From an uncultured bacterium (lineage in GTDB: Bacteria; Bacteroidota; Bacteroidia; Bacteroidales; Bacteroidaceae): a DNA stretch of 64,000 nt. Below the pieces are notes generated by a model. The model made no database searches and was not told the origin of the DNA. It saw nothing but the letters and a program-made list of their open reading frames with translations. The position numbers and the translations under genes were made by a program. Below, one piece after another: positions 46,437 to 64,000 of this stretch (positions are counted from its first letter, which is position 1; each line of letters opens with the position of its first letter). The stretch lies in NCBI GenBank assembly GCA_946546825.1, contig CAMNOK010000001.1:12956-76955 (forward strand), written 5' to 3'.

Positions 46437-48001
46437 TCACTTGAAAGTCACGCTGCCTCTCACATCCTCGGCACTGGAGCAGATATAGGCTTTCAGGTTG
46501 CCAGGCACGGGCTGCCAGGCATGGGCAGTCTCCGACCAGTGTTGGTAGCTGTTACGAGCAATGGTGAACGCACGGTGGTGTGCACCACCTCTTTGCCATC
46601 GCGTGAGCCGGTGTTGGTAACATCCACTTCCACCTGCCAGCCCTCGGCAGTGGAAGAAACCTGTGGCTTTCCGTAACGGAAGGTGGTATAGGAAAGTCCG
46701 TAGCCGAAGGGGAACAACGCACGTTTCTTATTTTTCTCAAAGCCACGATAACCCACGAACACGCCTTCGCGATAATGCACTTGTTTGTTGATGCCCGGGT
46801 AAGCCTCCTGCCCGTACTTCACGTATGGATAATCCTCGTATTGGCGGGCGAAGGTGACGGGGAGCTTCCCGCTGGGGTTCACCTTACCGGTGAGCACATT
46901 GGCTAAAGCCGTTCCCGACTCGCTGCCCAGATACCAGCAATGCACAAGCGCCTCCACCTGGTTGAGCCACGGCATGGCGTAGGGGTTGCCGCCAAAGGTG
47001 ACCACCACCATTGGGGCGGGCAGCGCGGCAAGGTCGGCAATGAGCTGGTTTTGTCCGAACGAGAGGTTATAGTCTTCGCGGTCGCCGTTCTCACAGTCCT
47101 GCCGGCGGTTTTTGTTCATGCCGCCTATATATATAATAAGGTGTGCCTGCCGTGCCTGCTCGATAGCCTCATCGTGCAGTCGTTGCTGTTCGGCGGGATC
47201 GACTTCATCCACCTTGTCGTAGAGGGCACGTCCGGAGGTGTAACCCTGAAGCCCCACCCCCGAGCCCCTCTCGAAAGAGGGGAGTGATTTGTTGGCTTCC
47301 TCGATAGTCTGTTGCAGGGCTTCGAAGGGAGAAACTTCTTGGAGTGTTTTCAGTTCGCTGGAACCGCCGCCAAGGGTAAGACTGCGCGTGGCATTCTCAC
47401 CAACAATGAGCACGCGAAGGCCGGCAAGCTTTTCGGGAGTGAGCGGAAGCAACGGTGTCTTACGTTCCTGTATATAGGGCACCACCATTTCAGAAGCCAA
47501 ATAAGGGTCTTCGCCCATGTATTCGAAGGCCCGTCCGTTGAGCGGCGTTCGCTGGATGTTCACCCCCGGGCCGAGCATCACGTCTTTGCCACGGAAAGCA
47601 AACTCTTCGCTCACCGAATGTCCGTAGAGCGAGGCCAGAGCGGGGTTCCAAGTGGCAGCCAGGCAGGTGAGCGAAGGTAACGCCACAATGGAGTCGTTGG
47701 TCCAGTTGGCAGTCTTCCACTCATTCCAGTCGAGTTCCTCGCGCACCCCATGAGGTCCATCGTCCATATTGAGCTGCCGAATGCCCAACCGCGGTACGCC
47801 AGCAGAAGTAAACTTACTCTGTGCATGAACGAGTTTGATTTTCTCTTGAAGCGTCATACGGCTCAAGGCATCAGCTACACGCTCCTCTAACGGTGCATTG
47901 GTGTCTAAATACTTGGATTGCTGGGCCTGCATATCTGCTGACATCAAAAATAAAACAACCCAGAAAAGGAGTCTCATCAAATTGCAAGAACTAATCTTCA
48001 T
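46437..48001 (-). pseudogene. GH3 beta-glucosidase pseudogene (internal deletions plus a frameshift)
   Basis: DGPHGVR, GPGVNIQRTPLNGRAFEYMGEDP, NPSGKLPVTF and FPFGYGLSYTTF present. The segment with the KH and SDW-type nucleophile motifs is missing (VPYIQ joins ERKTPLLPL). The Fn3 tail FTIAR..WQPVPGNLKAYICSSAEDVRGSVTFK continues in another frame to a TGA at 46437. Confidence 0.85.
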
Positions 48002-48020
48002 CGTCTTTCTCTTTACACCG

Positions 48021-48052
48021 CAAAAGTACAACATCCGGTTGAAACTTCCAAA
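48021..48052 (-). promoter_or_regulatory. Promoter of the GH3 pseudogene
   Basis: Minus strand TTTG (48052-48049), 20-nt spacer, TACTTTTG (48028-48021). Confidence 0.65.
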
Positions 48053-48228
48053 TCTTCCGAATAGTTTGTGCAAAAAACACTGACTAAAGCAGTACTTACA
48101 AGGCCGCTAATGGACAACGGACACAAAACGCGAAGATCCCGACGGTGGTCAGAACGACACAGCGTCGGGAACTTCTCTGTTGAGCATCAGAGCCGCAAGT
48201 CTTTTGCGGCCATAAGTCACCTGAAGGC

Positions 48229-49761
48229 TTAGCGAATACGCAGGGGAGCTTTGGATCTGGCTGCTTTCAACCTCATTGGACGGGCCTGAACAGGGTAATT
48301 TTCATCAATATACTCCACATTGTTGTAAGTCACACCGTCCAACACTCTCGAATAGACGGCAACATAGAGCGAGGTATCGCCCTTGCGGTAGTAGGTCAGC
48401 GCACTGATGTTCGGGTCCTCACTGTCATATGTATCATAGTAAGTATAGCCCATTGATTGCACATAGGTCTTCAGGTTGTTTAAGCTGGCAACTTCGGGAT
48501 CGAAATAGTAAAGGATATAGTTGAGCTTTCCTTCATCGGAGAAGACGAAGAAGATATTTTCAGCGAGTAATTTTCCACCATACATGAGAAAGTGTGTTTC
48601 CTCTGTTTCCTCTGATTCAAGCGTATAGCCAAGGTTTGACATAATGTTCTTCACATCAGTGGCCCCAGACTGTCCGATGACGACGGGGAACTCTTCATAG
48701 AGCGAGACCGATATAGGTGTGTAAGAAACCCACTCATCATTGGTTGCCGGGCCGAAGTATGGGGAATTAGACCGAAGATAGTCCCAATAGGCAAGATAGG
48801 TGTTGCCAGGTGTGAGCGTGGTTGTGAACTCGCCCACCTGAGTAAAGCCTGTGCTGTTTTCCTTCATGTAGCCAAAACAGAGTGTCACATTGTCTTGAAG
48901 AACATAAGTCCAGCCAACGAGGTTCGTACGGAAATAATCCCAACTGGCGTCGAAGTATGAGGGGGCGAAGTTTTGCAGATAATACCACTGGTTGGAAGAG
49001 GTTTCTGAAAAGTAGTTGAACTTGGACGAAGCGTGCGGGTCAATGTTATAGGAGCTGGCTCTTCTTCTGGCATATAGGGACAATTGCCGTATCTGGTTGT
49101 CACCGACCGTGCCAGAGGTAGGACTCTGATACATAAAGTTCTGGAAATAATCGTAGATGATAGCTCCCAGAGGATGTGTAGTGACGTTCAGCTGAGTGGG
49201 CTGAGTAGGGCTGATGGTGACCATGTCTGTAGAGGTGGAGATGATGTTCCACCGGTCTAAGGTCTTAGGACTCCTTTCGCTATAGGATGTCGGCACCAGC
49301 TCACAGGTTGACAGCCTATCGAAGTTACGCAGGTTGCAGCGAGGATGAAAAGCTGCAGAGTTGGACCTATTGGCATTGGCAAAGTTCAGTATGGTCACAG
49401 CATAGTAGGTGCCGGGGCGAAGGTTTGCCGTTGCGGTAATTCGGTTAGAGGAGGAAACAAACTTCTTGATGGAATCTACAAGTTCCTCGGTTTGTGCATC
49501 GTAGAGCAAGACACGCGCCTCGATACACATATCGTGTTCCGAAAAGAAGGTACGATAATGCTCAGACAACTGCGTGATGTCGTGAGCATTGTCTTCAAAG
49601 GTATAACTGGAATACAGTTCTTGTGGATTAATCTGAACGGTCAGAGCGTTTTGAATGACGGCAGAGGTGACTTCAATAGGTATCTCGTCGTTGGAACAAG
49701 AAGTAAACGCTCCCACAAAAAGAGTGGCAAGAGCCAGAATGGAATATTTGATGGTTTTCAT
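48229..49761 (-). CDS. Lipoprotein, possibly fimbrillin/type V pilin-like; last gene of the kinase cluster
   Basis: Start re-assigned to MKTIKYS (49761); lipobox FTSC-SNDE; RVLLYD...LRPGTYYAV..NFAN resembles Mfa/Fim-type N-terminal domains (weak). Confidence 0.65.
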   Translation of the reverse strand: MKTIKYSILALATLFVGAFTSCSNDEIPIEVTSAVIQNALTVQINPQELYSSYTFEDNAHDITQLSEHYRTFFSEHDMCIEARVLLYDAQTEELVDSIKKFVSSSNRITATANLRPGTYYAVTILNFANANRSNSAAFHPRCNLRNFDRLSTCELVPTSYSERSPKTLDRWNIISTSTDMVTISPTQPTQLNVTTHPLGAIIYDYFQNFMYQSPTSGTVGDNQIRQLSLYARRRASSYNIDPHASSKFNYFSETSSNQWYYLQNFAPSYFDASWDYFRTNLVGWTYVLQDNVTLCFGYMKENSTGFTQVGEFTTTLTPGNTYLAYWDYLRSNSPYFGPATNDEWVSYTPISVSLYEEFPVVIGQSGATDVKNIMSNLGYTLESEETEETHFLMYGGKLLAENIFFVFSDEGKLNYILYYFDPEVASLNNLKTYVQSMGYTYYDTYDSEDPNISALTYYRKGDTSLYVAVYSRVLDGVTYNNVEYIDENYPVQARPMRLKAARSKAPLRIR

Positions 49762-49783
49762 AATGATATCTTTTCTGTAAATG

Positions 49784-50473
49784 TTAGAAATCGGCGACAT
49801 TGAAAAGGTAAGCGACAGAGACCTCGAAGGAATTCATCTTACAAGGAAAGTTCTTGGCCAGCTTGCAGGTGCCCAGATAGTAACGAGCATTGATGTCGAA
49901 GCCCACGTTGGGGACCGTATAGCCAAGGCCCACAATCCCTCTGACGTCAAAACCCTTGAGCTCGCCTGTGTGATAAGTAAATTCAGAATAGAGCGCAGGA
50001 TTGGTAACTGTGAGTTCACTTGGGCTCTTAGACAGTGTGCCAGCGAAGGCTGCACCAAGCTCAACATAAAGCGGATTAACGCCGCTCATGTGAGCAAGAG
50101 GATAAATCTGAGCCAGCACGGGAACCTCAAAATAACTGATGGTGAGGTCTTTGTCAGCAGTTGTTTTGACCTTGTTCTGCTTGTATTTCAATTCCAAAGC
50201 GACTCCAAACAGGCCTGTGCCAGCGACAGAGTTCTCCGTTGCACGTCCAAAACGAGTCTTGGCCTGAAGACCACCGGAGAGTCCCAGCCCATTACCATCA
50301 TAGAGATCGACCTCCTTGGGCTGTGTCATGGAGGTGAAAGTAACACCCACCTTCGGACCAACGAACAAGACATTGTTCTTTTCTTTCACCGTCTCATCGA
50401 AATCCGTGCTTTGAGCATAGATCGGAATCAGGTTGAATGAGATTAGTACTAATAATAAGATTTTTTTCATCAT
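49784..50473 (-). CDS. Small outer-membrane beta-barrel (porin/PorT-like family)
   Basis: Signal peptide; VGPKVGVTF, YFEVPVLA, INARYYLG and terminal FEVSVAYLF strands. Confidence 0.8.
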   Translation of the reverse strand: MMKKILLLVLISFNLIPIYAQSTDFDETVKEKNNVLFVGPKVGVTFTSMTQPKEVDLYDGNGLGLSGGLQAKTRFGRATENSVAGTGLFGVALELKYKQNKVKTTADKDLTISYFEVPVLAQIYPLAHMSGVNPLYVELGAAFAGTLSKSPSELTVTNPALYSEFTYHTGELKGFDVRGIVGLGYTVPNVGFDINARYYLGTCKLAKNFPCKMNSFEVSVAYLFNVADF

Positions 50474-50509
50474 AGATACATATTTGATTGGTTAATTTTT
50501 GCTATTGAC

Positions 50510-52024
50510 TTAATAGAACGGACGAAGCGTGAGTCCCTCCTGGGTGGCAGAGCCACCCTTGTCCGTGGTGACTGTGACCGACTGGTTGGAGTAGTCCTTG
50601 CTCTTGACCACAAAGTAGCCCTTAACACTTCGGCTGCCGTTGGCCGGAATGGTGACGGTCAGAGTCTCGTTGTGGAATGTTTCGCTGCCATGCAGGTGCA
50701 CTTTGGTGGTAACTTCTTCTGCATTGGGATTGACAATCGTTGCCGTCACATAGACGCGGTCATCCTCGTCGGCCTGCGTACCGTGAACGGTGAGGCTGCA
50801 ACGAAGCCTGACTTCCTGCTTCTTGAAGAAGTATGAGATCTCACCGGCCCAGAGTTTCAGTCCTTCGGCAAATGCCATCACATCATAGACCTGTTCAGCA
50901 GAGGACGGCACAATGGAGAAACTGTATTGCTCTCCACTTTCCTGCAGAGCCATCTGCTCACCGTTTGTCCGGCTGATGACCGCGATTCTGACATGCTCGG
51001 ATTGCCATACGCCGGGCCGTTCGAGGCTGAAGGCACAGGTGACGCTACGTCCCGGGGCATAGACCAAATGGTTTTGAGGAACGCTGAGAGTAAAGTTACC
51101 CGGCTCCCTACCATACTTCAGCAGGCCCGCTTTTCCCTTCAAGACAACTGCGGCATAACCGTCTTCAAAGGGAGTGGCGGCCGAAAACTGGCAAGGGAGG
51201 ATGAGGATACCGTTTTCACGGTAGCCGTAGAGACCGTCTTGAGAAAAGGGTGAGGGTCCTATCTGGCGGGGTTCGGTATCGGCCCAGTCATTGAAGTGAG
51301 GCGTCTTGCCACGCTTAGTAATACAGGAAAAGCATGAAAGATAATCCAACTGAAACGAGCTGGGTTTGCCGACAGAGACGCATTTCCGGGTCTTCACGTC
51401 ATAGGTGTAGAACTTTCCGTCAGCATCTTTCACATAGGCTTTCCCCTTATAGACATTGGTTCCACTCCACACCTCGCCCACTCCAATAATGATCTGGGCA
51501 CGATGGCCAGACTTGTCTATCAGAGCGTATCGCTTGTTGCGGAACACGGCTGCGTAACCTTCGGCAAAAGGTTTGATGACGTCGAACTTACCATCAAACC
51601 CTAACACAGGCTGGCCTTCTTCATCTATGTAGCCGGCCTTACCAGCACCGTTGGCAACGGAAAGCATTCCATCGGAATAGAAAGCCTGTCCGAGCAACGT
51701 GTAGTATTTCTGTGTCAGTGGGGTAAACTGCCCACGGTCGGAAAGGATACCGAGTATGCGCATACGTTCTTTCTCTTTCTTCAGCACCAATGCCTTATGT
51801 TCACGGAAACCGGTCAGCTCATCGTATGCCATAGGAACAACGGGTGTTCCGTCGGCATGTATCAACAGCGTTTCACCGGCTTTCGTTGCCTGATATACAT
51901 CCACAGCCACACGCTTCAGCTGAGTGAAGCCTTGCGACGGTGAAATCTGCCACACAGCGGTCTGAGCCTCAACGTAAGAGGCAACGGAAAGTGCGACAAG
52001 AAGGAAGAAAATGATTTTACGCAT
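50510..52024 (-). CDS. Exported WG-repeat protein with a C-terminal Ig-like domain
   Basis: Signal peptide; repeats GKAGYIDEEG, PFAEGYAAV...YALIDKSG, GLYGY...PFEDGYAAV. Confidence 0.8.
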   Translation of the reverse strand: MRKIIFFLLVALSVASYVEAQTAVWQISPSQGFTQLKRVAVDVYQATKAGETLLIHADGTPVVPMAYDELTGFREHKALVLKKEKERMRILGILSDRGQFTPLTQKYYTLLGQAFYSDGMLSVANGAGKAGYIDEEGQPVLGFDGKFDVIKPFAEGYAAVFRNKRYALIDKSGHRAQIIIGVGEVWSGTNVYKGKAYVKDADGKFYTYDVKTRKCVSVGKPSSFQLDYLSCFSCITKRGKTPHFNDWADTEPRQIGPSPFSQDGLYGYRENGILILPCQFSAATPFEDGYAAVVLKGKAGLLKYGREPGNFTLSVPQNHLVYAPGRSVTCAFSLERPGVWQSEHVRIAVISRTNGEQMALQESGEQYSFSIVPSSAEQVYDVMAFAEGLKLWAGEISYFFKKQEVRLRCSLTVHGTQADEDDRVYVTATIVNPNAEEVTTKVHLHGSETFHNETLTVTIPANGSRSVKGYFVVKSKDYSNQSVTVTTDKGGSATQEGLTLRPFY

Positions 52025-52039
52025 GAGTGGAGCACAAGG

Positions 52040-52687
52040 TTACAGGTTGATATTCAGGTCTTCCAAGATGCCTAAGCCCTTTTTCTTCTTCTCTTGATTT
52101 ACGATAAGGTTGACCTCTTTCTTACCACACACTATCGTGATGATACCAGAACGCTTCGTATAGGTGGTATTTTCAGTTACTTCCACTGAGATTTTGTTCT
52201 CGGCCCGATAAACAGTGACCCAGTCGGGATGGTCTGTCACTTTCCAATCATTATAGTTACACTTCACATCCACACTCTGCTGGCCAGTCTTGGGCTTGGC
52301 CTTGAAATCCAAGACGTTTGATGAAAGGCTGAGGCGGACGTCACCACGGGTTTCAACAATTTCTTCCTTAACCTCATTATTCTTTTCTTCTACTTCTTTT
52401 TTCTCAGTCACAGGTCTTTTTGCCCTGTTCTTGCCGGCAGAGAGTCTCTTAATATTCTCTCGGCAAATAACAATCTGATTGTCACACATCTTTTTCTTCT
52501 CTGCTGCCGTATAGACAATTTTGGCTGCCTGGAACTTCTTGATGGCTCCTTTCTGCGATGATACGTTCATCACTTTCTGCATCTGCTGTCCCTCCAAGAA
52601 TAGCTTATCACCATTGGATTGAGCCATCGCTTCTACAGAAAAAAGGAGAAGCAGGCTACACACAATTGCACTGATTACTCTTTTCAT
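52040..52687 (-). CDS. Exported protein with a helical N-terminus and a C-terminal BACON-like domain
   Basis: Signal peptide; W.V...PDWVTV...ISVEVTENT...RSGIITI.....VNLIVNQ BACON pattern. Confidence 0.8.
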   Translation of the reverse strand: MKRVISAIVCSLLLLFSVEAMAQSNGDKLFLEGQQMQKVMNVSSQKGAIKKFQAAKIVYTAAEKKKMCDNQIVICRENIKRLSAGKNRAKRPVTEKKEVEEKNNEVKEEIVETRGDVRLSLSSNVLDFKAKPKTGQQSVDVKCNYNDWKVTDHPDWVTVYRAENKISVEVTENTTYTKRSGIITIVCGKKEVNLIVNQEKKKKGLGILEDLNINL

Positions 52688-52759
52688 ATTTACTTTATTC
52701 TTTTTATTGACTTCAGTAACTTGACGAACTGCTTAGATAAGATGTAGTCCACTATTCTA

Positions 52760-54247
52760 CTATCTTTCTTTTTTTTTTATATTTTCCAGTGTTTTGCTCA
52801 TCTGGGACTGCTTCTTCTGCAGTTCCACCTTTGTCAGGAAATCTTGGACCTCCAATTGTCTCTTCTTATATGACGCCGCTAAATCCGGCATATCCAAGTC
52901 TTCGAGTTCCTTGGTCTGAACTCCGAACTGGTTCAAGGCAGTGGTCAACAACATTATAATCTCTCTCTTCTTTACATCTACGTCAGGTAACGTCACTTCA
53001 TACATTTTTGCTTGCTGAGCTTTCTTACCAATGTTCTCGTAAGCGGTATAGGCCTTCATCAAAGCCTGCTCATAATTGTCGGCCTCAGTATCCTTTCCGG
53101 CCTCCAACAACTGTCCAGCTTCATCGGATAAAGATTTCAGTGAAGAAGCGAACTCTACCTTCTGCTGTTCATAGCGGGCCATCTCCGCTTCATGTCTTTT
53201 GTTCTCACGCTCTTTATTAAACAACAGCAGAGCACCCCCAAGGATGATGACAAGACCGACGACAGCCGCAATCATGGTGTACTTGAGTTGTGAAGATATC
53301 GGCTTTTTGCCCGCATTCATGGTCTCTAAGGCAACACGCATCTGGGCAGAAGTCTGGTATCTGAGATCTTGCTTCTTCTCACACGCTATGGCAATAATAT
53401 GCCTGAGATTTTTATTCTTGATGACGTTGAGCGGCATCTTGGCCTTTAACTGCTTTTCAAGAATTTCATGACGGGCTCCTTCAAATGGTGTATGACCGAC
53501 AATACATTGGTAAAGCAAGATTCCCATAGCATAGATATCTGTGGTCTGGTTCTGATGTTTGATGTCGCCTAAAGCCAGTTCCGGGGCGGCATACTCCGGC
53601 TTACCCATGAACTTTCCGGCAACAGTCAACGACTTGTCATTTGTTGTTAAGCTATTCATCTGCTTAGCAATGCCAAAGTCAATGAGCTTGATATGGCCAT
53701 CTGATGTAACCATAATGTTCGACGGATCAATATCGCGGTGGATGTAGCCGGCATCATGAAGCGCCATCAAACCTGACAGAATATTCATCACAATGACACG
53801 GGCAAAATGCTCAGGGTCGTTCTTATAGTCTTGCAACAGCTTCACTGCATAAGGGACTTCCTCTCCCGTGCGATCTACGGTCTTTCCATCCAAGATGTCG
53901 GATAACGATACTCCTGTCAGCAGTTCGCTGACCACATGGTAATGTTTCTTCACCCCTCCCAATGCGTCACGCTCTTCCGTCTCGATGAAACCAAGCATCT
54001 CAACGAGATTATCATTACGCAGTTGGATAGAAGCTTCTCTGCGTGCACGTTCTATAGCATTTGCGGGGAGATCTTCATACATGAACTTGATGGCAACAGG
54101 TCGAGTCGCACCTGTACGCTCATCTACACAAAGGCCCTTGAATACCTGACCCATACCGCCTACTCCTATCGGCTCTTCAGCAGAGTCGAGTTGATAAAAT
54201 ACACGTTTTCTCTTTTCGGCTTCTCCCTGTAATCTAATCAGTGACAT
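52760..54247 (-). CDS. Membrane-anchored Hanks-type protein kinase, atypical HRDIDPSN/GKPEY variant
   Basis: GVGGMGQV, VAIK, REASI, HRDIDPSN, DFG and GKPEYAAPE; one TM followed by a helical C-terminal domain. Confidence 0.93.
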   Translation of the reverse strand: MSLIRLQGEAEKRKRVFYQLDSAEEPIGVGGMGQVFKGLCVDERTGATRPVAIKFMYEDLPANAIERARREASIQLRNDNLVEMLGFIETEERDALGGVKKHYHVVSELLTGVSLSDILDGKTVDRTGEEVPYAVKLLQDYKNDPEHFARVIVMNILSGLMALHDAGYIHRDIDPSNIMVTSDGHIKLIDFGIAKQMNSLTTNDKSLTVAGKFMGKPEYAAPELALGDIKHQNQTTDIYAMGILLYQCIVGHTPFEGARHEILEKQLKAKMPLNVIKNKNLRHIIAIACEKKQDLRYQTSAQMRVALETMNAGKKPISSQLKYTMIAAVVGLVIILGGALLLFNKERENKRHEAEMARYEQQKVEFASSLKSLSDEAGQLLEAGKDTEADNYEQALMKAYTAYENIGKKAQQAKMYEVTLPDVDVKKREIIMLLTTALNQFGVQTKELEDLDMPDLAASYKKRQLEVQDFLTKVELQKKQSQMSKTLENIKKKER

Positions 54248-54260
54248 CTTTGAATATTTT

Positions 54261-55787
54261 TTAAAGTTTTTTCTTCAATTCTTCTGCTATTGTTTTCATC
54301 TTCTTTAAATGCTCTTTGGCTGAATCCGTTGCTCTGTATTTCTTTGTCTTTGTATCGATGCTAATAACGGCCGCCGGCGATTGAGTTTTTCCCTTATTGG
54401 TCATTACACCACGGATGCCATTAGTTTTGGACTGGAATCTCCTGTTGGTCTTGTTGTCGAACTCATCCAACAAAGAAAGAATCTTTTTCTGATGGTCTGT
54501 GATTTGTTTATTAACTTTCTTCACATCAACTCCACTGATAGTCATCATTTGATTCAAACTGTTGATAATCTGATCAATGTCATTTTTAGCTCCGGATGAA
54601 GACGTTGCAGATTTAGCCGAGGCATAGTTCTGAGGTCTGTTAGTGGCTACTATCGGCTGAGATGATGGCTGAGATGGAGCCTGGACCTGCTTCTCTGAAG
54701 CTTCGGTGAGTTTCTGAGTCAGCGTAGAAACTTCTTCTTCTAATTCTTTAATCTTCATGCGAAGATTGTCGTTTTCGTCGGTCAAAACTTTCACTGCAGA
54801 GGTAAAGTCGGCCGAGCCCTCAGTGAAAATTTTGTTATAACGCGATTCTATTGCCTTGAGCCGTGTGTATTTTGCCTTGTCGATGGCAATTGTATTTTCT
54901 TCTACAGGCTTGGGACGAGTGAGCATACTTGCTATATTGAACAGAAGACTTATTGCGAGAAGTGCTGACAATGCAGCGAAAACAATTCTTAAGTGTTTAC
55001 TCATTTTGTCTTTTAGAAGAGAGTTGGTATTCGTTTCTATTATAATTATAGTATGATTATCGTGATAACCTCCTGACGCATTGCCTATCTTATCTGTTTC
55101 ATCTTGTAACTGAAGAACAAGATTTTCTATAGGGTAATGGGCGGCAAAGCGAGTGAGGAGGTCTTCATGTTGCATGATGCCCCACACGCCATCCGTACAG
55201 AGTATAAAGCGGTCACCCCGCAAATATGGCACTTCCGCAATTTCTGGATTATGGTTGCTGGTATTACCAAGCCCTCGAGTGATGATGTTTGACTGTGGCG
55301 ATGTGCGGGCCTGCTCTTCTGTAAGCGTCTTATTGCGAACGAGTTCTCCGACCAATGAATGGTCAGCAGTTCTGAAGAACACTTTCTTACCACACATACG
55401 ATAGCAACGGCTGTCACCGAGATGAGCGACGAAAGCTGCTTGCCGAGTGAAGAGTACAGCAACAAGAGTTGAACCCATGCCTTGCAGCGACGGCACCTCC
55501 TGCATCTTCATAAAGAGTGCATCATTGGCTTTGGCAATGGCAATCTTCATGGCTTCTTGAGGAGAAACTGTCGGTTCAAATCCCTGCAACGTCTCCATAA
55601 AGACAAACTTGGCGATGTAGGAAGCGGTCTTTCCACCAGGTCCACCACCCATGCCGTCACAGACAACAGCCAAAAAGCCGAGTGGGGTCTCAACGAAACC
55701 ATAGTCGTCTTGATTTTCAGGACGGCCGCCTTGGCGAGTGTCTGCGACACCTTTCAACTGATATGCTGGTGACTGAAAATGTTCCAT
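54261..55787 (-). CDS. Membrane-anchored PP2C/PPM Ser/Thr phosphatase with a C-terminal coiled coil
   Basis: RPENQD, VCDGMGG, HLGDSR, DHS, CTDGVW and HDNHT; TM IVFAALSALLAISLLFNIA. Confidence 0.93.
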   Translation of the reverse strand: MEHFQSPAYQLKGVADTRQGGRPENQDDYGFVETPLGFLAVVCDGMGGGPGGKTASYIAKFVFMETLQGFEPTVSPQEAMKIAIAKANDALFMKMQEVPSLQGMGSTLVAVLFTRQAAFVAHLGDSRCYRMCGKKVFFRTADHSLVGELVRNKTLTEEQARTSPQSNIITRGLGNTSNHNPEIAEVPYLRGDRFILCTDGVWGIMQHEDLLTRFAAHYPIENLVLQLQDETDKIGNASGGYHDNHTIIIIETNTNSLLKDKMSKHLRIVFAALSALLAISLLFNIASMLTRPKPVEENTIAIDKAKYTRLKAIESRYNKIFTEGSADFTSAVKVLTDENDNLRMKIKELEEEVSTLTQKLTEASEKQVQAPSQPSSQPIVATNRPQNYASAKSATSSSGAKNDIDQIINSLNQMMTISGVDVKKVNKQITDHQKKILSLLDEFDNKTNRRFQSKTNGIRGVMTNKGKTQSPAAVISIDTKTKKYRATDSAKEHLKKMKTIAEELKKKL

Positions 55788-55812
55788 GCTTGGATATTAC
55801 ATGTTTTCGATT

Positions 55813-56451
55813 CTACAATGAGATCAGAACTCCCCAGAACGCAAATAACACAAACGACAAAACAATAACATTAAGGATAAAAATAGCTATACCCCACATG
55901 TCCCAACTGTGCTGTGTTTCTTCGAAGTCTATCACACTATTCCACCTTCTGTTCTCCCATGCCAGGCTGTAGCCGTATATACCAAAGATGAAAGCTGGAA
56001 TAATAGCCCATCCAAAAAAGAAGAATACCAGTATCGCCCACCAACACCCGTTGAAGAACCCCCAAAGGGGATACAACATAAAAGCTCCCCAACTCCATTT
56101 AGAGAGATCCGGACCTGATTCGGACTCTGACACTGGACTCGTTTCATCAGATACAGTACCATTATAGTGTGGCGGCTGTGCTACTGTTGAGGGGAAAAAA
56201 GCGTCAATTTGATTCCAATTGACTTGATATTTCCCTGCGAGCATAATGATATCTCCTCGGCGGATAGGTACAGATCTATGCTTAACACTGACATTATTAA
56301 TCATTGTACCATTGGTGCTGGTATCCTTATACATTAACTGTTGGCCATCGTAGAAGATTGTGCCGTGATATTTACTTGCGTACTGACAACGCGGGTCAAG
56401 ATAAATGTCGCAATCTTTGGAACGACCTATCGTTACTTCTCTTAACAACAT
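55813..56451 (-). CDS. FHA domain fused to a multi-pass membrane domain (DUF2628-like)
   Basis: IGR..CDI...SKYH...STNGT (FHA); WSWGAF...LAWENRRW...Q..W membrane module. Confidence 0.85.
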   Translation of the reverse strand: MLLREVTIGRSKDCDIYLDPRCQYASKYHGTIFYDGQQLMYKDTSTNGTMINNVSVKHRSVPIRRGDIIMLAGKYQVNWNQIDAFFPSTVAQPPHYNGTVSDETSPVSESESGPDLSKWSWGAFMLYPLWGFFNGCWWAILVFFFFGWAIIPAFIFGIYGYSLAWENRRWNSVIDFEETQHSWDMWGIAIFILNVIVLSFVLFAFWGVLISL

Positions 56452-56464
56452 AATTCAAAATGCT

Positions 56465-57706
56465 TTATTCAACATTAAATGGAATCGATATATGCCGCTT
56501 GGTGTCATAAAGAGCATAAGTGCCAGTCTGTTTAATGACAAAGACGACTATCGTATTGCCATTAACACTGGTCTCTTCGCTCTTTGGTTCGATAGCGTTC
56601 AACAAGCTCTTGTAGCTAATACTTGTATTGTCTTTCAATTCAACCAACTTGAAGGCGTTCTCCCCATCAATAGATGAATTCTTGAATTGCAAGACCATCT
56701 CCAGGCTCTTGTCATCTTCCTTGGTGAATTTGGGAATAGAATCGCCATCAAAGCTCTCCAGTTCGATACTACTGTCACCTTCTGTTGCATTCACAGCCAG
56801 CATTTCTTTGCCATTCAACAGAATCTGGCCTGGCTCCAGCACGACATCAATCTTTCCCTGATACTGAGGATTTTTCTCCTTCTCAACACCTGTTACTCTA
56901 TTCAGATAAATCTTGCGCTGATTACCATTTTCTTCTTCAATCACCAGGAAGTATTCTGATTCGGTGTTGCCGCCATAGTTTTGCTCAATAATGATGCCTT
57001 TCACGGTCTCACCACCTTTTATTTTCACGATATCCAAGAGCGGACTGTGAAGGAAGATGCTCTGCTTGGGATTCAATGGCTTCACGGTATATCTCACGAC
57101 ATCATTGAGGCTGAAGGTTTCCAACATCCCATTACTGAGGTAAAGACTCAGGGTACTGTCAGTTTCCTCTGCATATTGTCCTTCTATCACATCACCATCG
57201 TTCAGCTCATATACTCGGTCTATACCGGTGAGTGCAAGTTTAGGGCGCTTGTCGGACTTGATGGCTACGACGTCTTTCCATTTGATGTCGTAAACGCTGG
57301 GCGTCAGTTCCATGTACTTTACCCTGGTGCCATTTTCCAAAAGCCTTACGCCATCAACAGATTCCATGCCATATATAGGCTGACGGAATTCAATGTTATG
57401 GAGAAGGAGAAAACTGTCAGTTCCCTGAACGGTGTAGGCGTCATTTTTCTTTGCCCATTCCTTCCAAGAAGCTTGCAGTTTGGAAATGTCGTGTTTCTTC
57501 TCAAAGACATTGATAACAAGTTTACCGTCCAAAGAAATGACAGCATTATCCGAATGGAAGACAATGATATTACTGTTAATATCTTGTCTTTCAATAAACC
57601 CGTTCAAGACAGAACCATTCTTTAGGATGATTCTTTGAACAGATGCCGCCTTAGCCGTTCCGAGAACGGCTAAGGTCAGCATGAGGATAGATAATATCTT
57701 TTTCAT
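56465..57706 (-). CDS. Exported hypothetical protein with three small beta-domain repeats
   Basis: Signal peptide; IILKNGSVLNGFIERQ, YELNDGDVIEGQYAEE and VKIKGGETVKGIIIEQ repeats. Confidence 0.7.
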   Translation of the reverse strand: MKKILSILMLTLAVLGTAKAASVQRIILKNGSVLNGFIERQDINSNIIVFHSDNAVISLDGKLVINVFEKKHDISKLQASWKEWAKKNDAYTVQGTDSFLLLHNIEFRQPIYGMESVDGVRLLENGTRVKYMELTPSVYDIKWKDVVAIKSDKRPKLALTGIDRVYELNDGDVIEGQYAEETDSTLSLYLSNGMLETFSLNDVVRYTVKPLNPKQSIFLHSPLLDIVKIKGGETVKGIIIEQNYGGNTESEYFLVIEEENGNQRKIYLNRVTGVEKEKNPQYQGKIDVVLEPGQILLNGKEMLAVNATEGDSSIELESFDGDSIPKFTKEDDKSLEMVLQFKNSSIDGENAFKLVELKDNTSISYKSLLNAIEPKSEETSVNGNTIVVFVIKQTGTYALYDTKRHISIPFNVE

Positions 57707-57722
57707 TATGACTTCTGTTTAA

Positions 57723-59351
57723 TTAATCTCTTGCCTTATTTTTATCATACAATTCCTTCAAATGCTTAATGTTACAAGCATAAGCGACATCAGTTCCTCT
57801 GTGACTTGCATTAATAACTCCTACAAGACGAAAATTCTTATCAATGACAGGTGAGCCGCTTTGACCGCCGACCACATTGCTTTGAAGCTGGAACATGTTG
57901 TCATCGGGGCGTTTACTGATATAAGTACGATGGACGGTCGGCAAGAATTCAGTACCTTTAGATATAATTCTCACATTAGTATTGTATTCTGCCGGGTAGC
58001 CAATGGTTGTCAGCTCATCTTCTTGTGGATTAAGAGAGAGTTCATCAGTGCGCGCCTTCTCGATATCAAAGAAGCCACCCTTCACGATTTCATCCGGCGT
58101 CTTCTTGGAATTCAGACGAATCAATGCAACATCCTTGAACTCATCACCACTTTCAGCAATAACTTGGCATGAGTGCAAATCAGCGATTGTAGTAAAGTTG
58201 GTTCCTGTTAAAGCGATGCCGAGATACTCAAAGCTTCCTGACAATTCATAATCTGACTTCTGAATTCTTGACAGCCATGCATCAATATTCTTTAAATCGG
58301 TAATTGTTTGGGCATAGTCACTTTGTGTAGCTGTTTTACTGAGATATTTAGATACAAAGGCATTTTTTACCTGTGTACTTAATGCCTGCGTTATACTATT
58401 TGCCTTTTCTGTTATAGACACAACAATCTGCTGACGTATATTATCTTTTAAGTCATTACTGATATAGTTCCACGGACATGCTATATGTCTGTTTGTACCC
58501 AACTCTCCTTTCTCTGAAATAAAGAAAGCCGTTCCTCGCGCTTCAAGCGGTGAAACTTTTATATCTTCATTCGGCCAGTTGGTTGCAAGGGTTACTTTAC
58601 CATCCTGAACGCCGAATGTCCATTTAGTAGGCCAATCCTTAATTTTACCAATGAATGGGTCATCCTTAATAGTGACTTCTATATAATACCTTTCAAACAC
58701 GCAAGTAGTGGCAGCCTGTAGAGATTTCAAAGAAGGGTGCGGGTCCGGGAAAAATATTGCCGCGATGGCAATCAACAGGAAGCAAGCAGCTGTACCGAGG
58801 ATATATTTCCACACAGGTGTAGGAATCATCTTCCAGACACGGTCCAACTCTGCCTTTGGAACAGGAACGCCACCACACACGATGGAACTCTTACGATTTA
58901 ACCGATAGGGATTATTTGGCGTAATCTTTGAACCGTTAACGGTAGTACCGTTTTTACTATGGTCAACGATATACACTTTATTATCTCTGCTTACTTTGAT
59001 AGTAGCATGATAACGACTTACTGTTGATCCGTTCAACGAGATATCATTGTTGAAGTTCTTTCCAATGTTAAAGATTGCTTTGTAGGCAGAATTGTCTTCT
59101 GGACGAGGAACCTGACTCCACTGTAACTCTGTGTCTGCAAAACGAATGGTATCGCCATATTTCACATTGACAGGTTGCCCAGGTTTAATAGGCTGGTTCA
59201 TCACAAATGTTCCATTGCGACTTCCCTTATCTTCCAACAGGATGTCACCGCTGTCCATTAACACCAATTCGGCATGAACAGAACTAACCTTTTCACTATA
59301 CAATACGATGTCGCAGTTCTTCGGATCACGACCAATTTTTAGTAGTCTCAT
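57723..59351 (-). CDS. FHA-FHA-TM-trypsin-like serine protease
   Basis: Two FHA motifs (IGR..SSVH..SRNGT; IGK..SRYH..SKNGT), one TM, then triad motifs TNRHIA, DVALIRL and GQSGSP. Confidence 0.9.
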   Translation of the reverse strand: MRLLKIGRDPKNCDIVLYSEKVSSVHAELVLMDSGDILLEDKGSRNGTFVMNQPIKPGQPVNVKYGDTIRFADTELQWSQVPRPEDNSAYKAIFNIGKNFNNDISLNGSTVSRYHATIKVSRDNKVYIVDHSKNGTTVNGSKITPNNPYRLNRKSSIVCGGVPVPKAELDRVWKMIPTPVWKYILGTAACFLLIAIAAIFFPDPHPSLKSLQAATTCVFERYYIEVTIKDDPFIGKIKDWPTKWTFGVQDGKVTLATNWPNEDIKVSPLEARGTAFFISEKGELGTNRHIACPWNYISNDLKDNIRQQIVVSITEKANSITQALSTQVKNAFVSKYLSKTATQSDYAQTITDLKNIDAWLSRIQKSDYELSGSFEYLGIALTGTNFTTIADLHSCQVIAESGDEFKDVALIRLNSKKTPDEIVKGGFFDIEKARTDELSLNPQEDELTTIGYPAEYNTNVRIISKGTEFLPTVHRTYISKRPDDNMFQLQSNVVGGQSGSPVIDKNFRLVGVINASHRGTDVAYACNIKHLKELYDKNKARD

Positions 59352-59369
59352 ATCTTTAGGTTTTTAAAA

Positions 59370-60026
59370 TTATCCACGAATTCTTTTCTTATCCTTTGAG
59401 GATTTCTTTAACTTATCTCCTTGTTCAACAGAAGTTTTTTGCTCATTGTTTTCAACTTTCTTCTCATCAATCTTCTTTACATTGTCTTTTGCTTTAGGCT
59501 TCTGAGAGCCGTGGTTTGAAGATACATGATGGCCGCGTCTGGCATGGGCTCGGTTGATTGAATCCTCGACATGCTTTCTGATAGAATCACGCTTTTGTTC
59601 TTCTATCTGTTTTAATTGATTTTCCTGCTGTTTGACAGCCGCTGTGTCAACGACTGGGATGACATCTTGACTGGAGTTACTTCCTCTAAACATTGTAAAA
59701 GAGATGACAGCACCTATAATAACTGCAAGCACAGCAAGTCCAACAAGAGAGAACTTAAGAATTTTTGCTCCTGTATTGGGCACGAGCTTCCAGTCTAACC
59801 TGGCCACATGTGCAAATGACACGTTATCCTTACGTGATACAGGGAATGGAACATTGGGGGAAATACGCATACCATTGACATAAGTTCCATTCTGACTCAG
59901 GTCAATTATGGTCATTTTTCCTGTTGACGTCACGTTCAGTGTTGCATGACGGCGGCTGACGACGTTGGAAAGATCGTTGATAACAATATCGCAGCCAGCT
60001 TCTCGTCCGATTGAATAGACTTTCAT
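59370..60026 (-). CDS. FHA domain protein with one TM and a charged C-terminal tail
   Basis: IGRE..CDI...VSRRHA...SQNGT; TM FSLVGLAVLAVIIGAVISF. Confidence 0.88.
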   Translation of the reverse strand: MKVYSIGREAGCDIVINDLSNVVSRRHATLNVTSTGKMTIIDLSQNGTYVNGMRISPNVPFPVSRKDNVSFAHVARLDWKLVPNTGAKILKFSLVGLAVLAVIIGAVISFTMFRGSNSSQDVIPVVDTAAVKQQENQLKQIEEQKRDSIRKHVEDSINRAHARRGHHVSSNHGSQKPKAKDNVKKIDEKKVENNEQKTSVEQGDKLKKSSKDKKRIRG

Positions 60027-60041
60027 AATATGTTTATTGTT

Positions 60042-61064
60042 TTATTTTAGTACTTTTTGTGCTTTATTGATTTTCTCGTTCAGTTTGACGATGGAACTAT
60101 TTTTCTCTTGAATGATTTGTTGATTCGTAGAATCCTTCTTCTTCAAAGACTCTACTTGTGCTTTTAGACCTGCCACATCTGTCGCCAACGCGATGTTTAG
60201 CACAATACTGATTGCACACACTGCCGCAAGGCTGAGCAGAATAATTTTTATTTTCTTTGACATATTGGGCTTAAGTTTTGAATTAATTTTTGTATCAACG
60301 ATTATTAGCGTCAAATTATCATGTCCTCCTCCATTTCTTCTTCCCGTATCATCGGCAGTGGTTGCTATATTGTCGCATACAGCACCGAGAGAAGATTTGC
60401 GATTGGTAGCCAACCTGATGAGGTCGCGTTCGGGCATGATTCCGTGAATCCCATCACTACACAACAAAAAACGATCTCCCTTCTCATAAGCAACTTCTTT
60501 CACTTCTACCTCTACATCAGGCGTGATGCCTAATGCTCTAGTAATGACATTGGACTCGGCAGATAGGCGTGCCTGTTCCTCAGTAATCAATCCCTGTTTT
60601 ACCAAATCAAAGACTACAGAATGGTCAAAGGTACGAAATATCTTCCTCTTTCCCCGAAATTGATAGACGCGACTATCTCCTACATGAGCCACAAATGCCG
60701 ACTGAGGAGAAAGGAGCAAAACTGTAGCAGTTGAACCCATACCCTTAAAAGCAGGATTTTCATTACCATACGAGATTATTGCCATGTTTGCCCTGCGAAT
60801 GGATTTGATTATAATATTAGGAATCTCTTCATCGGGTTCAGCTTCTTTGATACCAGTAATGATTTCCTGAACAGCTATAGTAGAAGCCGTTTTACCACCA
60901 GGACCACCTCCCATGCCATCGCATACTGTAAAGAGAAAGCCAAAAGGGGTTTCCAAGGCTCCATAAGAGTCTTGATTCTCTTGTCTTCCACCAATACGAG
61001 ACTCAGCGAATCCTATGAAGAAATCTTTATCTGATTTATGCAGTTGTTTGAGTTCCAATTCCAT
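60042..61064 (-). CDS. Membrane-anchored PP2C/PPM Ser/Thr phosphatase
   Basis: RQENQD, VCDGMGG, HVGDSR, DHS, CSDGIH and HDNLT; TM then a short coiled coil. Confidence 0.93.
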   Translation of the reverse strand: MELELKQLHKSDKDFFIGFAESRIGGRQENQDSYGALETPFGFLFTVCDGMGGGPGGKTASTIAVQEIITGIKEAEPDEEIPNIIIKSIRRANMAIISYGNENPAFKGMGSTATVLLLSPQSAFVAHVGDSRVYQFRGKRKIFRTFDHSVVFDLVKQGLITEEQARLSAESNVITRALGITPDVEVEVKEVAYEKGDRFLLCSDGIHGIMPERDLIRLATNRKSSLGAVCDNIATTADDTGRRNGGGHDNLTLIIVDTKINSKLKPNMSKKIKIILLSLAAVCAISIVLNIALATDVAGLKAQVESLKKKDSTNQQIIQEKNSSIVKLNEKINKAQKVLK

Positions 61065-61077
61065 AACAAAAGAATTT

Positions 61078-62076
61078 TTATAGTAGAATGATAATAATGA
61101 AGAAGATAATTACCGTAAGAGTTAGTACTCCTGCAAAAATGGCGATAGGATGTTCTTTAATCCATTGTGATAGCTGCTCAAATGGTGACGGGTCTGGCAA
61201 CAAAGCATTTTGAATAGCTTGCTTGAAATCAAGCGCTGTCTGATAGCGTCGGCTTTGCTCCTTTTCCGTGGCCTTCCATATCACTTGCATCAACTTTTTG
61301 GGAATCATATCACTTGAAGGAAGGCGGTCTTTCATCTGTCTTTTCAATGTTTCTGCCTCTGTTTCACAAGACATTGGATTCTTTCCTGTCAACAGTTCAT
61401 AGAAAGTGATTCCCAGTTCATAGATATCTGTTGTAGCATTGATTTGAACTTCTCCTCTGTTTTGTTCTCTCAGCATTTGTTCGGGAGCAGAGTATTCTGG
61501 CGTGCCAATGAATCCATAAGACGAGAACTGGTTTCCTCCATTCATGCGAGAGATGCCGAGATCCATCAGACGGACATTTGACCCATTCTCTATCATTATA
61601 TTAGACGGCTTGATGTCACGGTGAATAACTCCGCGTGAATGAACATAGTCAAGGGCATCAAGAACAGAGCAGATTGCTCTACAAATCTTCTCTACCCGTT
61701 CAGGATGTTCTGCAAAATTCTTCACATACTTGTCAATATTCTCTCCCTGTACAAAATGGCTCAATATGAAAATAGGGCCATTATCTGGAGCATACTCGCA
61801 ATAGCCAATCATTTCCACAAGATTGGGATGTCTAAAAGCGAGCGATGCCTCTTGTCGCGCGCGCTCGCGAATCATTCTATTATTAGCATAGGCATCAAGA
61901 ACTCTTTTTACGGCTATTATAGACCCTGTCTTGCATCTGTACCCTCTATACACTTCTCCCATTGCGCCACTGCCAATAGGTGGCTCCGAAGGATTGTAGC
62001 AATACCACTCCCCCATGACATATAGGTAAATGTATGGATCGTTTTTCCGCCTGACTACTGTTTGCATGGTATTCAA
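61078..62076 (-). CDS. Hanks-type Ser/Thr kinase with a C-terminal membrane anchor (canonical catalytic loop)
   Basis: GSGAMGEV, IAVK, HRDIKPSN, DLG and GTPEYSAPE; terminal TM. Confidence 0.93.
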   Translation of the reverse strand: MNTMQTVVRRKNDPYIYLYVMGEWYCYNPSEPPIGSGAMGEVYRGYRCKTGSIIAVKRVLDAYANNRMIRERARQEASLAFRHPNLVEMIGYCEYAPDNGPIFILSHFVQGENIDKYVKNFAEHPERVEKICRAICSVLDALDYVHSRGVIHRDIKPSNIMIENGSNVRLMDLGISRMNGGNQFSSYGFIGTPEYSAPEQMLREQNRGEVQINATTDIYELGITFYELLTGKNPMSCETEAETLKRQMKDRLPSSDMIPKKLMQVIWKATEKEQSRRYQTALDFKQAIQNALLPDPSPFEQLSQWIKEHPIAIFAGVLTLTVIIFFIIIILL

Positions 62077-62083
62077 TTTTTAG

Positions 62084-63679
62084 TTATCGAACAATATTCT
62101 CGAGCTTTTGAATATTCGTATTGATGCTCCTTACAAACTCATGGTCTTCAGCCTCTTTAGCATATTTGCCTGCTTCCCTGAAGAGTTTCAATGCCTCTGC
62201 CAGATTCCTCTTGTATTCACTTGCCCTACTACTTCCGCCATAAAAGTCACAACCAAGCTCGTAAAGAGCTTTATAGTTTGAAGAATCTTGCCTAACAGCC
62301 AGCAGAAGAAGTTCCTGCGCCTTCTTGTTATTGATACTTAACTCTGCATTGTTTCTCATTTCGATGATTGAGTCAGGGCAAAAGTCCTGAGCAGCAAGGC
62401 TTTTGAAATAGAGTCTGCTTAATAGATAGGAAGCTTCTGAATTTCCAGACTCAGAGAGGGCTAAAAGTTCCATTATACCATCTGAAGCAGATTCTTTTTT
62501 ATAAAGTCTTGATACAGCTTGGGCATAAGCATCTATAACATGATTTGCAGATTGGGAATCAGATTCATGATTTGTCACTTCTGCTACGAGTTGTGGATGA
62601 GGAGGCTGAGAGGGTGGTTTAAGTTGTTTCCAGCCCACTACAATGACACTGATGGCAATAACAACAGCTGCTATATATTCAACATACTTAAGCGGAACAC
62701 TATCATCCCACCAATGGCCGTTATTACTTAACGGAGTTGGTAGGTGGTCAATGGCAACTCTGAATTCTGCTGCACTGGCATAGCGCTTCTCTCTTGACTT
62801 TTCTACAGCCTTTGCAATGATTTTGCGAATATGCTTATTTTTGATGAGATGAAGAGGTGGCTTCTTATGTATCTGCATGTGAAGCACAGCCTGCTTATCG
62901 CCCTCAAAGGGGGGGTGGCCAACGATACATTGAAACAACAAGATACCAACAGCGTAGATATCTGTTGTCTGGTTTTGATGGCCGATGTCTCCAAGAACGA
63001 GTTCGGGTGCAGCATACTCTGGCTTTCCAATAAATGCACCAGCATTTGTGAGTGACTTGTCGTGGCTTGTCAGCGATCGAAGCTGCTTAGCTATGCCGAA
63101 ATCAATCAGCTTGACGTGTCCGTCACTGGTAATCATGATGTTGGTTGGATCAATGTCACGATGTATATAGCCCGCATCATGAAGGGCCATCAAGCCGGAA
63201 AGAACACTTCTTATTATGTAAACGGCAAAATGATTAACGTCTCTCTGATAGTCATTATATAACTTTTGTGCAAAGGGCATGATTCTTCCAGTTCTGTCAA
63301 CGATGCGCCCCTGAAGCAGGTCATCAAGCATGATACCTTCCAAAAGTTCACTGACAACATGATAATGTTTTCGGACTTCTCCAATGACATTTTTCTCTTC
63401 AGTCTCAATGAAGCCCAACATCTCAACAAGATTCTCATGTTTTATTTGAATAGAAGCTTCTCTACGGGCACGTTCTATCGTTTGAGGAGCTTGCCACTGA
63501 AGTTCGTCAAACATGAACTTTACAGCAACAAGTTTTCTGCTGTGCGTGTTTTCATCAACACACCAGCCTTTATACACCTTACCCATGCCGCCCACGCCGA
63601 GGGGTTCTTCTGCTGAATCAAATTCATAGAAGATGCCTCTGCGTTTTTCGGCTTTACCTTGTAGTCTGTATAACGACAT
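62084..63679 (-). CDS. Membrane-anchored Hanks-type kinase, atypical HRDIDPTN/GKPEY variant, with a Sel1/TPR-like C-terminal domain
   Basis: GVGGMGKV, VAVK, HRDIDPTN, DFG and GKPEYAAPE; TM; GNSEASYLLSRLY and KALYELGCDFY..EALKLFREA Sel1-like helices. Confidence 0.93.
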   Translation of the reverse strand: MSLYRLQGKAEKRRGIFYEFDSAEEPLGVGGMGKVYKGWCVDENTHSRKLVAVKFMFDELQWQAPQTIERARREASIQIKHENLVEMLGFIETEEKNVIGEVRKHYHVVSELLEGIMLDDLLQGRIVDRTGRIMPFAQKLYNDYQRDVNHFAVYIIRSVLSGLMALHDAGYIHRDIDPTNIMITSDGHVKLIDFGIAKQLRSLTSHDKSLTNAGAFIGKPEYAAPELVLGDIGHQNQTTDIYAVGILLFQCIVGHPPFEGDKQAVLHMQIHKKPPLHLIKNKHIRKIIAKAVEKSREKRYASAAEFRVAIDHLPTPLSNNGHWWDDSVPLKYVEYIAAVVIAISVIVVGWKQLKPPSQPPHPQLVAEVTNHESDSQSANHVIDAYAQAVSRLYKKESASDGIMELLALSESGNSEASYLLSRLYFKSLAAQDFCPDSIIEMRNNAELSINNKKAQELLLLAVRQDSSNYKALYELGCDFYGGSSRASEYKRNLAEALKLFREAGKYAKEAEDHEFVRSINTNIQKLENIVR

Positions 63680-63697
63680 AGACGCTAAAAAGTCAAA

Positions 63698-64000
63698 TTA
63701 CATCCCAATCGTTCCGCCCTTGTTATTTCCCAAAGTTCCGTCCAATCCTACCGTTCCAGGACTTGGGGTGAAGGGAGAGTTGCCAACTGACGACTGAGAG
63801 CCGAACGGTTGGAATGACTCGCCTGGTTTGGTAAAGCCTGGAGGAATGGAACCATTATAATCAAGGATTTCGTCTTCAGCATCTTCACTAACCTCTGTTC
63901 CGATAAATTTATCTGAAACATGTAGTCCAAGTGCTGCTGTATCTATAAGTACAAGGAACAACTCATAGTTATCACCAATAGTGATAATATCACCGTTTTG
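63698..64000 (-). CDS. Partial gene (5' end outside window), probable FHA-domain protein with a Pro/Gly/Thr-rich tail
   Basis: The frame is open to the window edge: QNGDIITIGDNYELFLVLID resembles the last strands of an FHA domain. Confidence 0.65.
   Translation of the reverse strand, partial: QNGDIITIGDNYELFLVLIDTAALGLHVSDKFIGTEVSEDAEDEILDYNGSIPPGFTKPGESFQPFGSQSSVGNSPFTPSPGTVGLDGTLGNNKGGTIGM

Follow-up and report, generated by a model that had tools for sequence, protein, structure and literature searches.

Hanks-type kinases that act on Ser or Thr are commonly recognized by two signature residues, the Lys of the catalytic-loop motif HRDxK (position HRD+2, Lys168 in protein kinase A, PKA) and a Thr at the start of the P+1 loop (position APE8, Thr201 in PKA). 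In PKA, Lys168 and the Gly loop position the gamma-phosphate of ATP between them; in other kinases, the basic group comes from elsewhere in the protein (PMC4718504). The two signature sites touch, since in canonical Ser/Thr kinases the APE8 hydroxyl makes hydrogen bonds both to the Lys of HRDxK and to the catalytic Asp; among human kinases other than Tyr kinases, 95% have Ser or Thr at APE8 (bioRxiv 10.64898/2026.02.19.706771). Among the closest described systems is PpkA/TagE, the Thr-phosphorylation pathway of the T6SS (type VI secretion system) of the Serratia type, in which a membrane kinase has FHA and PP2C partners. PpkA of Serratia marcescens Db10 is reported to phosphorylate Fha at Thr438 (PMC6082577), and the PpkAs of Agrobacterium and Acidovorax are likewise Thr kinases (PMC3953482, PMC12607579).

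Here we describe two kinases with both signature residues exchanged, encoded in a window of 64,000 nucleotides from an uncultured member of the Bacteroidaceae (assembly GCA_946546825.1, contig CAMNOK010000001.1). K1 (52760..54247, minus strand, 495 amino acids) reads HRDIDPSN (53717-53740) and GKPEYAAPE (53579-53605), with Asp174 (53726..53728) at HRD+2 and Lys216 (53600..53602) at APE8. K2 (62084..63679, minus strand, 531 amino acids) reads HRDIDPTN (63140-63163) and GKPEYAAPE (63002-63028), with Asp177 (63149..63151) and Lys219 (63023..63025) at the same sites. Their neighbor K3 (61078..62076, minus strand) is canonical, with HRDIKPSN (61600-61623) and GTPEYSAPE (61480-61506). We refer to kinases by the residues at HRD+2 and APE8, so that K1 and K2 are D/K (Asp and Lys), K3 is K/T (Lys and Thr), and other pairs are named likewise. 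The swap is as a preliminary description of this DNA had given it, including the catalytic-loop positions; the coordinates reported there for the P+1 motif span GKPEY alone and not the whole of GKPEYAAPE. Its statement that the Gly loop, the beta3 Lys of VAxK, the alphaC Glu, the catalytic Asp and Asn, and DFG are intact in both variants also holds, while K3 has DLG in place of DFG. In K1, a kinase domain (residues ~1-312) is followed by a predicted transmembrane (TM) helix (~325-343) and a C-terminal tail, likely periplasmic; K2 has a predicted TM helix at ~330-348, and K3 ends in a TM anchor without an outer domain. From comparison of these sequences with their relatives, we estimate a probability of about 75% that K1 and K2 are active, phosphorylation-regulated, Thr-directed membrane kinases in which the APE8 Lys takes over the holding of the gamma-phosphate.

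The D/K family in Bacteroidales

A homologue search in which 8000 candidates were scored gave 5605 matches, and the named homologues came from Prevotella, Bacteroidaceae, Bacteroides ilei, Muribaculaceae, and Porphyromonadaceae. HRDID was present in all of the best 120 and GK in 118 (the other 2 could not be parsed); hence, the swap is neither an assembly error nor due to chance. The 150 best representatives at 50% clustering, minus 2 multidomain proteins of >1000 amino acids and 6 fragments or frameshifted sequences, left 142 readable at both sites. Down to ~40% identity, these were 138 D/K, 2 D/R, 1 S/K, and 1 A/T.

K1 and 133 of the representatives were aligned (those left out were mostly fragments, together with P0215 and the A/T orphan). 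Across the 134 rows, HRD+2 is Asp in 133 and Ser in 1, never the canonical Lys, and APE8 is Lys in 132 and Arg in 2, never the canonical Ser or Thr. The beta3 Lys, the Arg and Asp of HRD, the catalytic Asn, and the Asp of DFG are invariant, and the alphaC Glu is kept in 133. The D/K kinases thus combine the Hanks-type fold and Gly loop with every other catalytic residue of the group. They lack the Tyr-kinase marks (Pro at APE8, Arg in the catalytic loop), and they fall outside the pseudokinase definition of the bacterial Ser/Thr kinase atlas preprint (loss of the VAIK Lys, the HRD Asp, or the DFG Asp), all three residues being invariant. Less strictly conserved are Lys or Arg195 of the RD pocket (128 of 134 rows), Thr or Ser208 of the activation loop (122), and Ile or Val at DFG+1 (128); a TM helix follows the kinase domain in 129 of 133 family members. 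Of 10 orthologous genes compared, 2 were skipped owing to indels; the 8 that could be aligned, in which synonymous sites are saturated (pS 0.82 to 0.87, pN 0.10 to 0.16), all retain both swapped residues.

The closest solved relatives of K1 by both sequence and fold are the PknB/PknA/Stk1-type receptor kinases. Its AlphaFold2 model has a PknB-like fold (confidence score, pLDDT, 93.1) and superimposes on 5u94 with a Z score of 29.8 and a root mean square deviation of 2.4 over 253 residues. K1 shares with these kinases the RD motif, an activation-loop Thr, and the order kinase, TM helix, outer domain; however, they keep HRDxK and GT, whereas K1 lacks PASTA domains and scores 148 bits against NF033483 (cut-off 450). 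ESM Atlas returned generic kinase names alone for the homologue P0102.

The distribution of the family is patchy: D/K kinases were present in 9 of 300 genomes of the family to which the window belongs, and none was found in 400 phylum-wide genomes or in 400 order-wide genomes (3 candidates scored per genome). One D/K kinase of the Bacteroidales type, accompanied by a BACON gene, lies on a contig labelled Oscillibacter (L008), which is probably misbinned or mislabelled.

The same swap in PpkA-like kinases

Metagenomes were scanned with a high-GC pattern for HRDxD, which gave 53 loci: 35 were Bacteroidales D/K kinases, 1 was truncated, 1 could not be resolved, 4 were APH-like, 7 were not kinases, 2 were D/T, and 3 were unrelated kinases. 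These three (28 to 34% identity) again carry Lys at APE8, and one of them, L205, matched a single Protein Data Bank (PDB) sequence at an E value of ≤1e-25, PpkA (5HNV, 5X1Q-T). We take 5HNV to be the Serratia PpkA. Its sequence reads HRDISLDN and LKPGFAPIE, that is, Ser at HRD+2 and Lys at APE8. A residue other than Lys at HRD+2 combined with Lys or Arg at APE8 is therefore found both in D/K kinases and in Serratia-type PpkA, and the D/K pair itself recurs in the PpkA-like family (L167, L178, L205, and L223). The two groups differ in that kinases of the Serratia PpkA type mostly have Ser or Ala at HRD+2 and have PxE, while D/K kinases have Asp and APE, and 5HNV is absent from the 15 PDB matches of K1 at an E value of ≤1e-20.

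The PpkA-like family was then collected from genome samples with a pattern blind to both positions. The 38 loci obtained comprised 32 K/[ST] kinases and 6 with a non-Lys residue at HRD+2 and Lys or Arg at APE8, and none was mixed. Another 20 PpkA-like kinases, picked because their matches contained the Lys, proved without exception to be K/[ST], and 11 plasmid matches divided into 7 non-K/K, 3 K/[ST], and 1 S/L. A plasmid search directed at the characterized Agrobacterium PpkA did not show it among the 25 matches listed of 45. Among 30 enterobacterial PpkA homologues (L300-L329), 25 had Ser with Lys or Arg, 3 had no basic residue, and 2 were not parsed. The three without it, the divergent L326-L328, have also lost the catalytic Asn as well as DFG and look like pseudokinases. 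Arg is as frequent as Lys at APE8 of the enterobacterial PpkAs (HRDIS...LRPG). In the phylum to which G1091 belongs (121 genomes), the HRDxDxxN pattern gave 6 matches, and a pattern applied to viral contigs gave 9; none of these was a kinase. The viral contigs gave no match to a PpkA-like query.

Catalytic basic residues supplied by another element are also known from WNK, the Arg of Tyr kinases, Lys677 of JAK2 JH2, and Arg245 of ROP5B. However, WNK moves the beta3 Lys, and no Lys168 substitute listed in the relevant section of PMC4718504 comes from the P+1 loop, their sources being the catalytic loop or the Gly loop.

Origins and coupling of the swap

The preliminary description had named independent variation of the two sites among homologues as the outcome that would speak against it. 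We did not see it: in a tally of 289 distinct kinase segments, in which relatives and overlapping segments were retained, the sample was biased by the searches, and L172 and L203 were missed, 11 were unresolved, and of the other 278, 276 had exactly one basic residue, 1 had two (L131), and 1 had none (L285).

The D/K clade is fully supported in the tree and groups with the K3 clade and the K/S kinase L110, so that within the Bacteroidales the swap is a single event. The kinase domains of K1 and K2 are 65% identical (either is ~31% identical to K3) and fall in one clade; therefore, the recurrence in both reflects one inherited event, and two independent events in K1 and K2 were ruled out. The earlier argument, by which recurrence in two diverged paralogues was itself evidence, falls with this, whereas the compensated subfamily with Lys supplied from the P+1 loop that it was meant to support stands on other grounds: the pair is conserved and probably functional, and it recurs in the PpkA lineage.

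Origins were tested on a quick 51-row tree (LG+G4) with both trait residues masked. A single clade of all Lys-moved kinases was rejected (p-AU 6e-45), as was a single clade of the PpkA-like Lys-moved kinases (p 0.003, a hypothesis tested after the trees had been seen). The swap thus arose separately at least twice, and the D/K clade is convergent with the PpkA of T6SS; membership of the D/K family in PpkA was ruled out by the same trees. The D/K family probably works like PpkA but is not a member of the PpkA clade.

Partner kinases and T6SS at D/K loci

We compared 27 distinct loci (19 loci plus 9 genomes, minus one duplicate). The number of D/K kinases per locus ranges from one to three. PP2C and FHA genes are present in 26 loci, and 25 have a canonical kinase of the K3 type next to the D/K kinase, the exceptions being a truncated locus and one with other canonical kinases. 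Given this co-occurrence, K3 may be a working partner of the D/K kinases. The K3-type partners have HRD in 20 of the 25 loci and the non-RD forms HMD or HLD in 5 (L016, L018, L019, L148, and L152), whereas the D/K kinases are always RD. This would fit a cascade from K3 to the activation loop of the D/K kinase. The presence of one to three variant kinases next to a canonical one also distinguishes these operons from PpkA/TagE.

Some D/K clusters include T6SS genes. Out of 10 D/K genomes checked for TssC, it was located within the cluster, between D/K kinases, in 3 (G996, G1038, and G1011) and on a separate contig in G890; it was not found in 6, which include the genome of the window (62% complete). 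Besides TssC, G996 encodes Hcp, VgrG, and a ClpV-like ATPase, and G1038 encodes VgrG. In the three clusters (G996:C33 ~22400-56000, G1038:C7, and G1011:C6), the T6SS genes are interspersed with PP2C and FHA genes and with D/K kinases, two or three of the latter per cluster; this could represent a phosphorylation-controlled T6SS of Bacteroidales. The TssC score in the interleaved systems is ~437 bits, against 759 for the separate one in G890.

The three T6SS loci also code for a conserved kinase-FHA fusion pseudokinase that has lost the Gly loop, the HRD Asp, and DFG (HCQLTPEN), in each case directly upstream of a D/K kinase (L135:15552-16850, minus strand; L139:11200-12495, plus strand; L141:17154-18449, plus strand). 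By their sequences, these genes illustrate how a kinase released from catalysis looks in a D/K setting. Several D/K operons have an M6-family metallopeptidase gene at their end or within them (L004:16192-18801, L143:17526-19586, and L151:3-1619).

A probable active Thr kinase with a relocated Lys

Because the APE8 and HRD+2 sites touch in canonical kinases, a Lys at APE8 should be able to reach the gamma-phosphate and would place its amine where that of the lost HRD+2 Lys was. Asp174 would pin Lys216 through a salt bridge, which would be helpful but dispensable, as PpkA-like kinases manage with Ser or Ala at this site. A signal received at the outer tail would lead to phosphorylation of Thr208 in the activation loop, either by the D/K kinase itself or by the canonical partner K3, and then to Thr phosphorylation of targets, to be read by the FHA proteins of the operon and reversed by its PP2Cs. 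We favor an active Thr kinase over the alternatives because PpkA, which bears the swap, is reported to act on Thr and because a Lys at APE8 should reach the required spot. Degeneration left other traces: the pseudokinases of the D/K loci and L326-L328 lost several motifs, whereas the D/K kinases keep all the other catalytic ones.

Several observations weigh against this reading. Judging from the residues, D/K kinases have lost the hydroxyl at APE8 by which the catalytic Asp is oriented, and the PpkA residue at HRD+2 is Ser, not Asp; activity could suffer from having an Asp close to the gamma-phosphate. Db10 PpkA presumably carries the residues of 5HNV, to judge from its orthologues. Confidence in the K1 model is lowest in the activation loop (residues 208-210, pLDDT <50). 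No basic residue stands at either site in the nearly identical L172 and L203 (D/T, with a degenerate P+1 loop), in L285 (S/L), or in the A/T singleton P0250, and L131 (G497:C538) has lysines at both (HRDVK and GK), which suggests that a two-lysine intermediate can exist. A search with P0250 gave 73 new matches, all D/K; it is therefore an orphan, and a revertant clade was ruled out, no relatives sharing A/T. Finally, an independent-pairs test found 3 pairs on strongly supported branches (mean of 2.7 concordant, 0 opposite; p 0.25) and was underpowered, with p 0.5 in the reversed direction; the coupling hence rests on the at least two separate origins and the structural contact, not on a significant count. 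A complex prediction of the K1 and K3 kinase domains with ATP/Mg scored 0.00, with the controls not folded, and weighs neither way.

The D/K protein might instead be an ATP-binding pseudokinase or allosteric receptor, its Asp-Lys pair closing the acceptor site, that senses a signal and activates K3 as the sole source of phosphothreonine. The company of a K3-type kinase in 25 of 27 loci would agree with this, as would the lack of an outer domain in K3 where most D/K kinases have one, and the non-RD partners in 5 of 25 loci are what would be expected of a constitutive enzyme. Nevertheless, we consider this unlikely, since the three pseudokinase-defining residues are invariant, the true pseudokinases of the same loci show decayed motifs, and the swap also occurs in PpkA, reported to be active (PMC6082577). 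If, on the other hand, the coupling itself were illusory, the pair would be two founder substitutions of one clade, each kept for its own reason (e.g., substrate docking) and with no relocation of the Lys. The single event within Bacteroidales and the nonsignificant corrected pair test are compatible with that; the recurrence of the pairing in an unrelated family, with separate origins and no mixed case among 38 unbiased matches, and the direct contact of the two sites in canonical kinases (bioRxiv 10.64898/2026.02.19.706771) make it very improbable.

An active kinase with a changed acceptor, either Tyr or dual specificity or an acid-labile N-linked one, seems slightly less probable than a pseudokinase. 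We take the Asp in the EGD motif of Wee1 to stand at APE8. That residue is called Asn in bioRxiv 10.64898/2026.02.19.706771, where APE8 is described as contacting the acceptor region and separating Ser/Thr from Tyr kinases. In Wee1 kinases, with HxDLK and EGD (PMC3818516), these two regions are likewise bridged by an ion pair, Lys/Asp, the mirror image of the pair seen here, and the canonical partner could provide phosphothreonine for the FHA domains. However, the charges are reversed in Wee1, a eukaryotic, Tyr-directed, and unrelated kinase whose HxDxK and EGD motifs are not found in D/K kinases, and these also lack the Pro and Arg of Tyr kinases. The operon phosphatases are PP2Cs. Beta-branched residues at DFG+1, as in 128 of the 134 rows, favor Thr. 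A large hydrophobic residue there favors Ser (PMC6835155), so that Ser selectivity is disfavored. The Lys-moved PpkA lineage phosphorylates Thr (PMC6082577), and the operon is rich in FHA domains; for these reasons the altered acceptor proposed in the preliminary description found no support, and a non-Thr acceptor was rejected as the lead reading.

Taken further, relocation of the Lys to the P+1 loop might be a second way of building the active site of bacterial Hanks kinases, evolved repeatedly, so far without a name, and shared by a whole Bacteroidales clade and the PpkA of T6SS. It would have its own Thr-site code, since APE8 lines the substrate groove, and a single operon could then operate two insulated kinases in series, with K3 priming Thr208 of the D/K receptor kinases, which would switch on T6SS in some Bacteroidales. 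We regard this extension as tentative and, taken whole, rather doubtful.

Relation to previous descriptions

Our literature search found no description of the D/K family or of the exchange between HRD+2 and APE8; that search did not extend to the structure paper on PpkA or to the supplements of the atlas, either of which may mention it. The main text of the atlas preprint (42 families) has no occurrence of "Bacteroid," "P+1," or "PpkA," and neither the swap nor the family is described in the portions available of PMC12599244, 10.64898/2026.09.18.752743, PMC1262709, PMC13584744, and PMC6426457. As the HRDxK Lys and the APE8 Thr are treated as signatures, their natural and repeated exchange offers a clean double-mutant test of the role of each, and it cautions that absence of Lys168 should not by itself brand a kinase dead. 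It also allows PpkA, a T6SS regulator that has been studied and has structures available, to be reread at its active site. The D/K kinases are an unstudied signaling family from Bacteroidales of the gut and rumen, and their active site differs from those of host kinases. The importance is bounded, because the reaction is likely to be ordinary phosphorylation of Thr and the arrangement is already present in a protein of solved structure.

The operon and its neighborhood

The three kinase genes belong to a minus-strand run of 14 genes (48229-64000) that extends past the window to G000:C1:77435. The run opens with an FHA-like protein of 260 amino acids (G000:C1:76653-77435; its C-terminal part lies in the window at 63698..64000), in which the FHA motif is there with its first Arg missing. 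K2 and K3 come next, followed by a PP2C phosphatase (60042..61064), an FHA-domain protein with the motif G-R...S-x-x-H...NG (59370..60026), and a protein with two FHA domains and a trypsin-like protease domain (57723..59351). A conserved exported protein without a named family (56465..57706) then precedes a protein with an FHA domain and a hydrophobic membrane region (55813..56451), a second PP2C phosphatase with a C-terminal extension (54261..55787), and K1. Downstream of K1 are exported proteins with a BACON domain (52040..52687) and WG repeats (50510..52024), an outer-membrane beta-barrel (49784..50473), and, as the last gene, a probable lipoprotein (48229..49800) with a weak, sub-cut-off match to Mfa1. 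All of these are on the minus strand.

The exported protein at 56465-57706 has no Pfam family and is kept in most D/K operons; it contains repeated segments of the type I.LKNG..I.G.IIE and has a weak LA_0442 N-terminal match. A motif scan of the genome (62% complete) found no Hanks kinases other than K1, K2, and K3. Each of the three kinase genes is covered in part by contigs from RNA libraries of three studies; since the matches are contigs, they do not demonstrate transcription. Beyond the end of the run, positions 46493-48073 hold a probable GH3 beta-glucosidase gene (526 amino acids) that appears to be internally truncated or frameshifted, with an abrupt junction and an odd C terminus.

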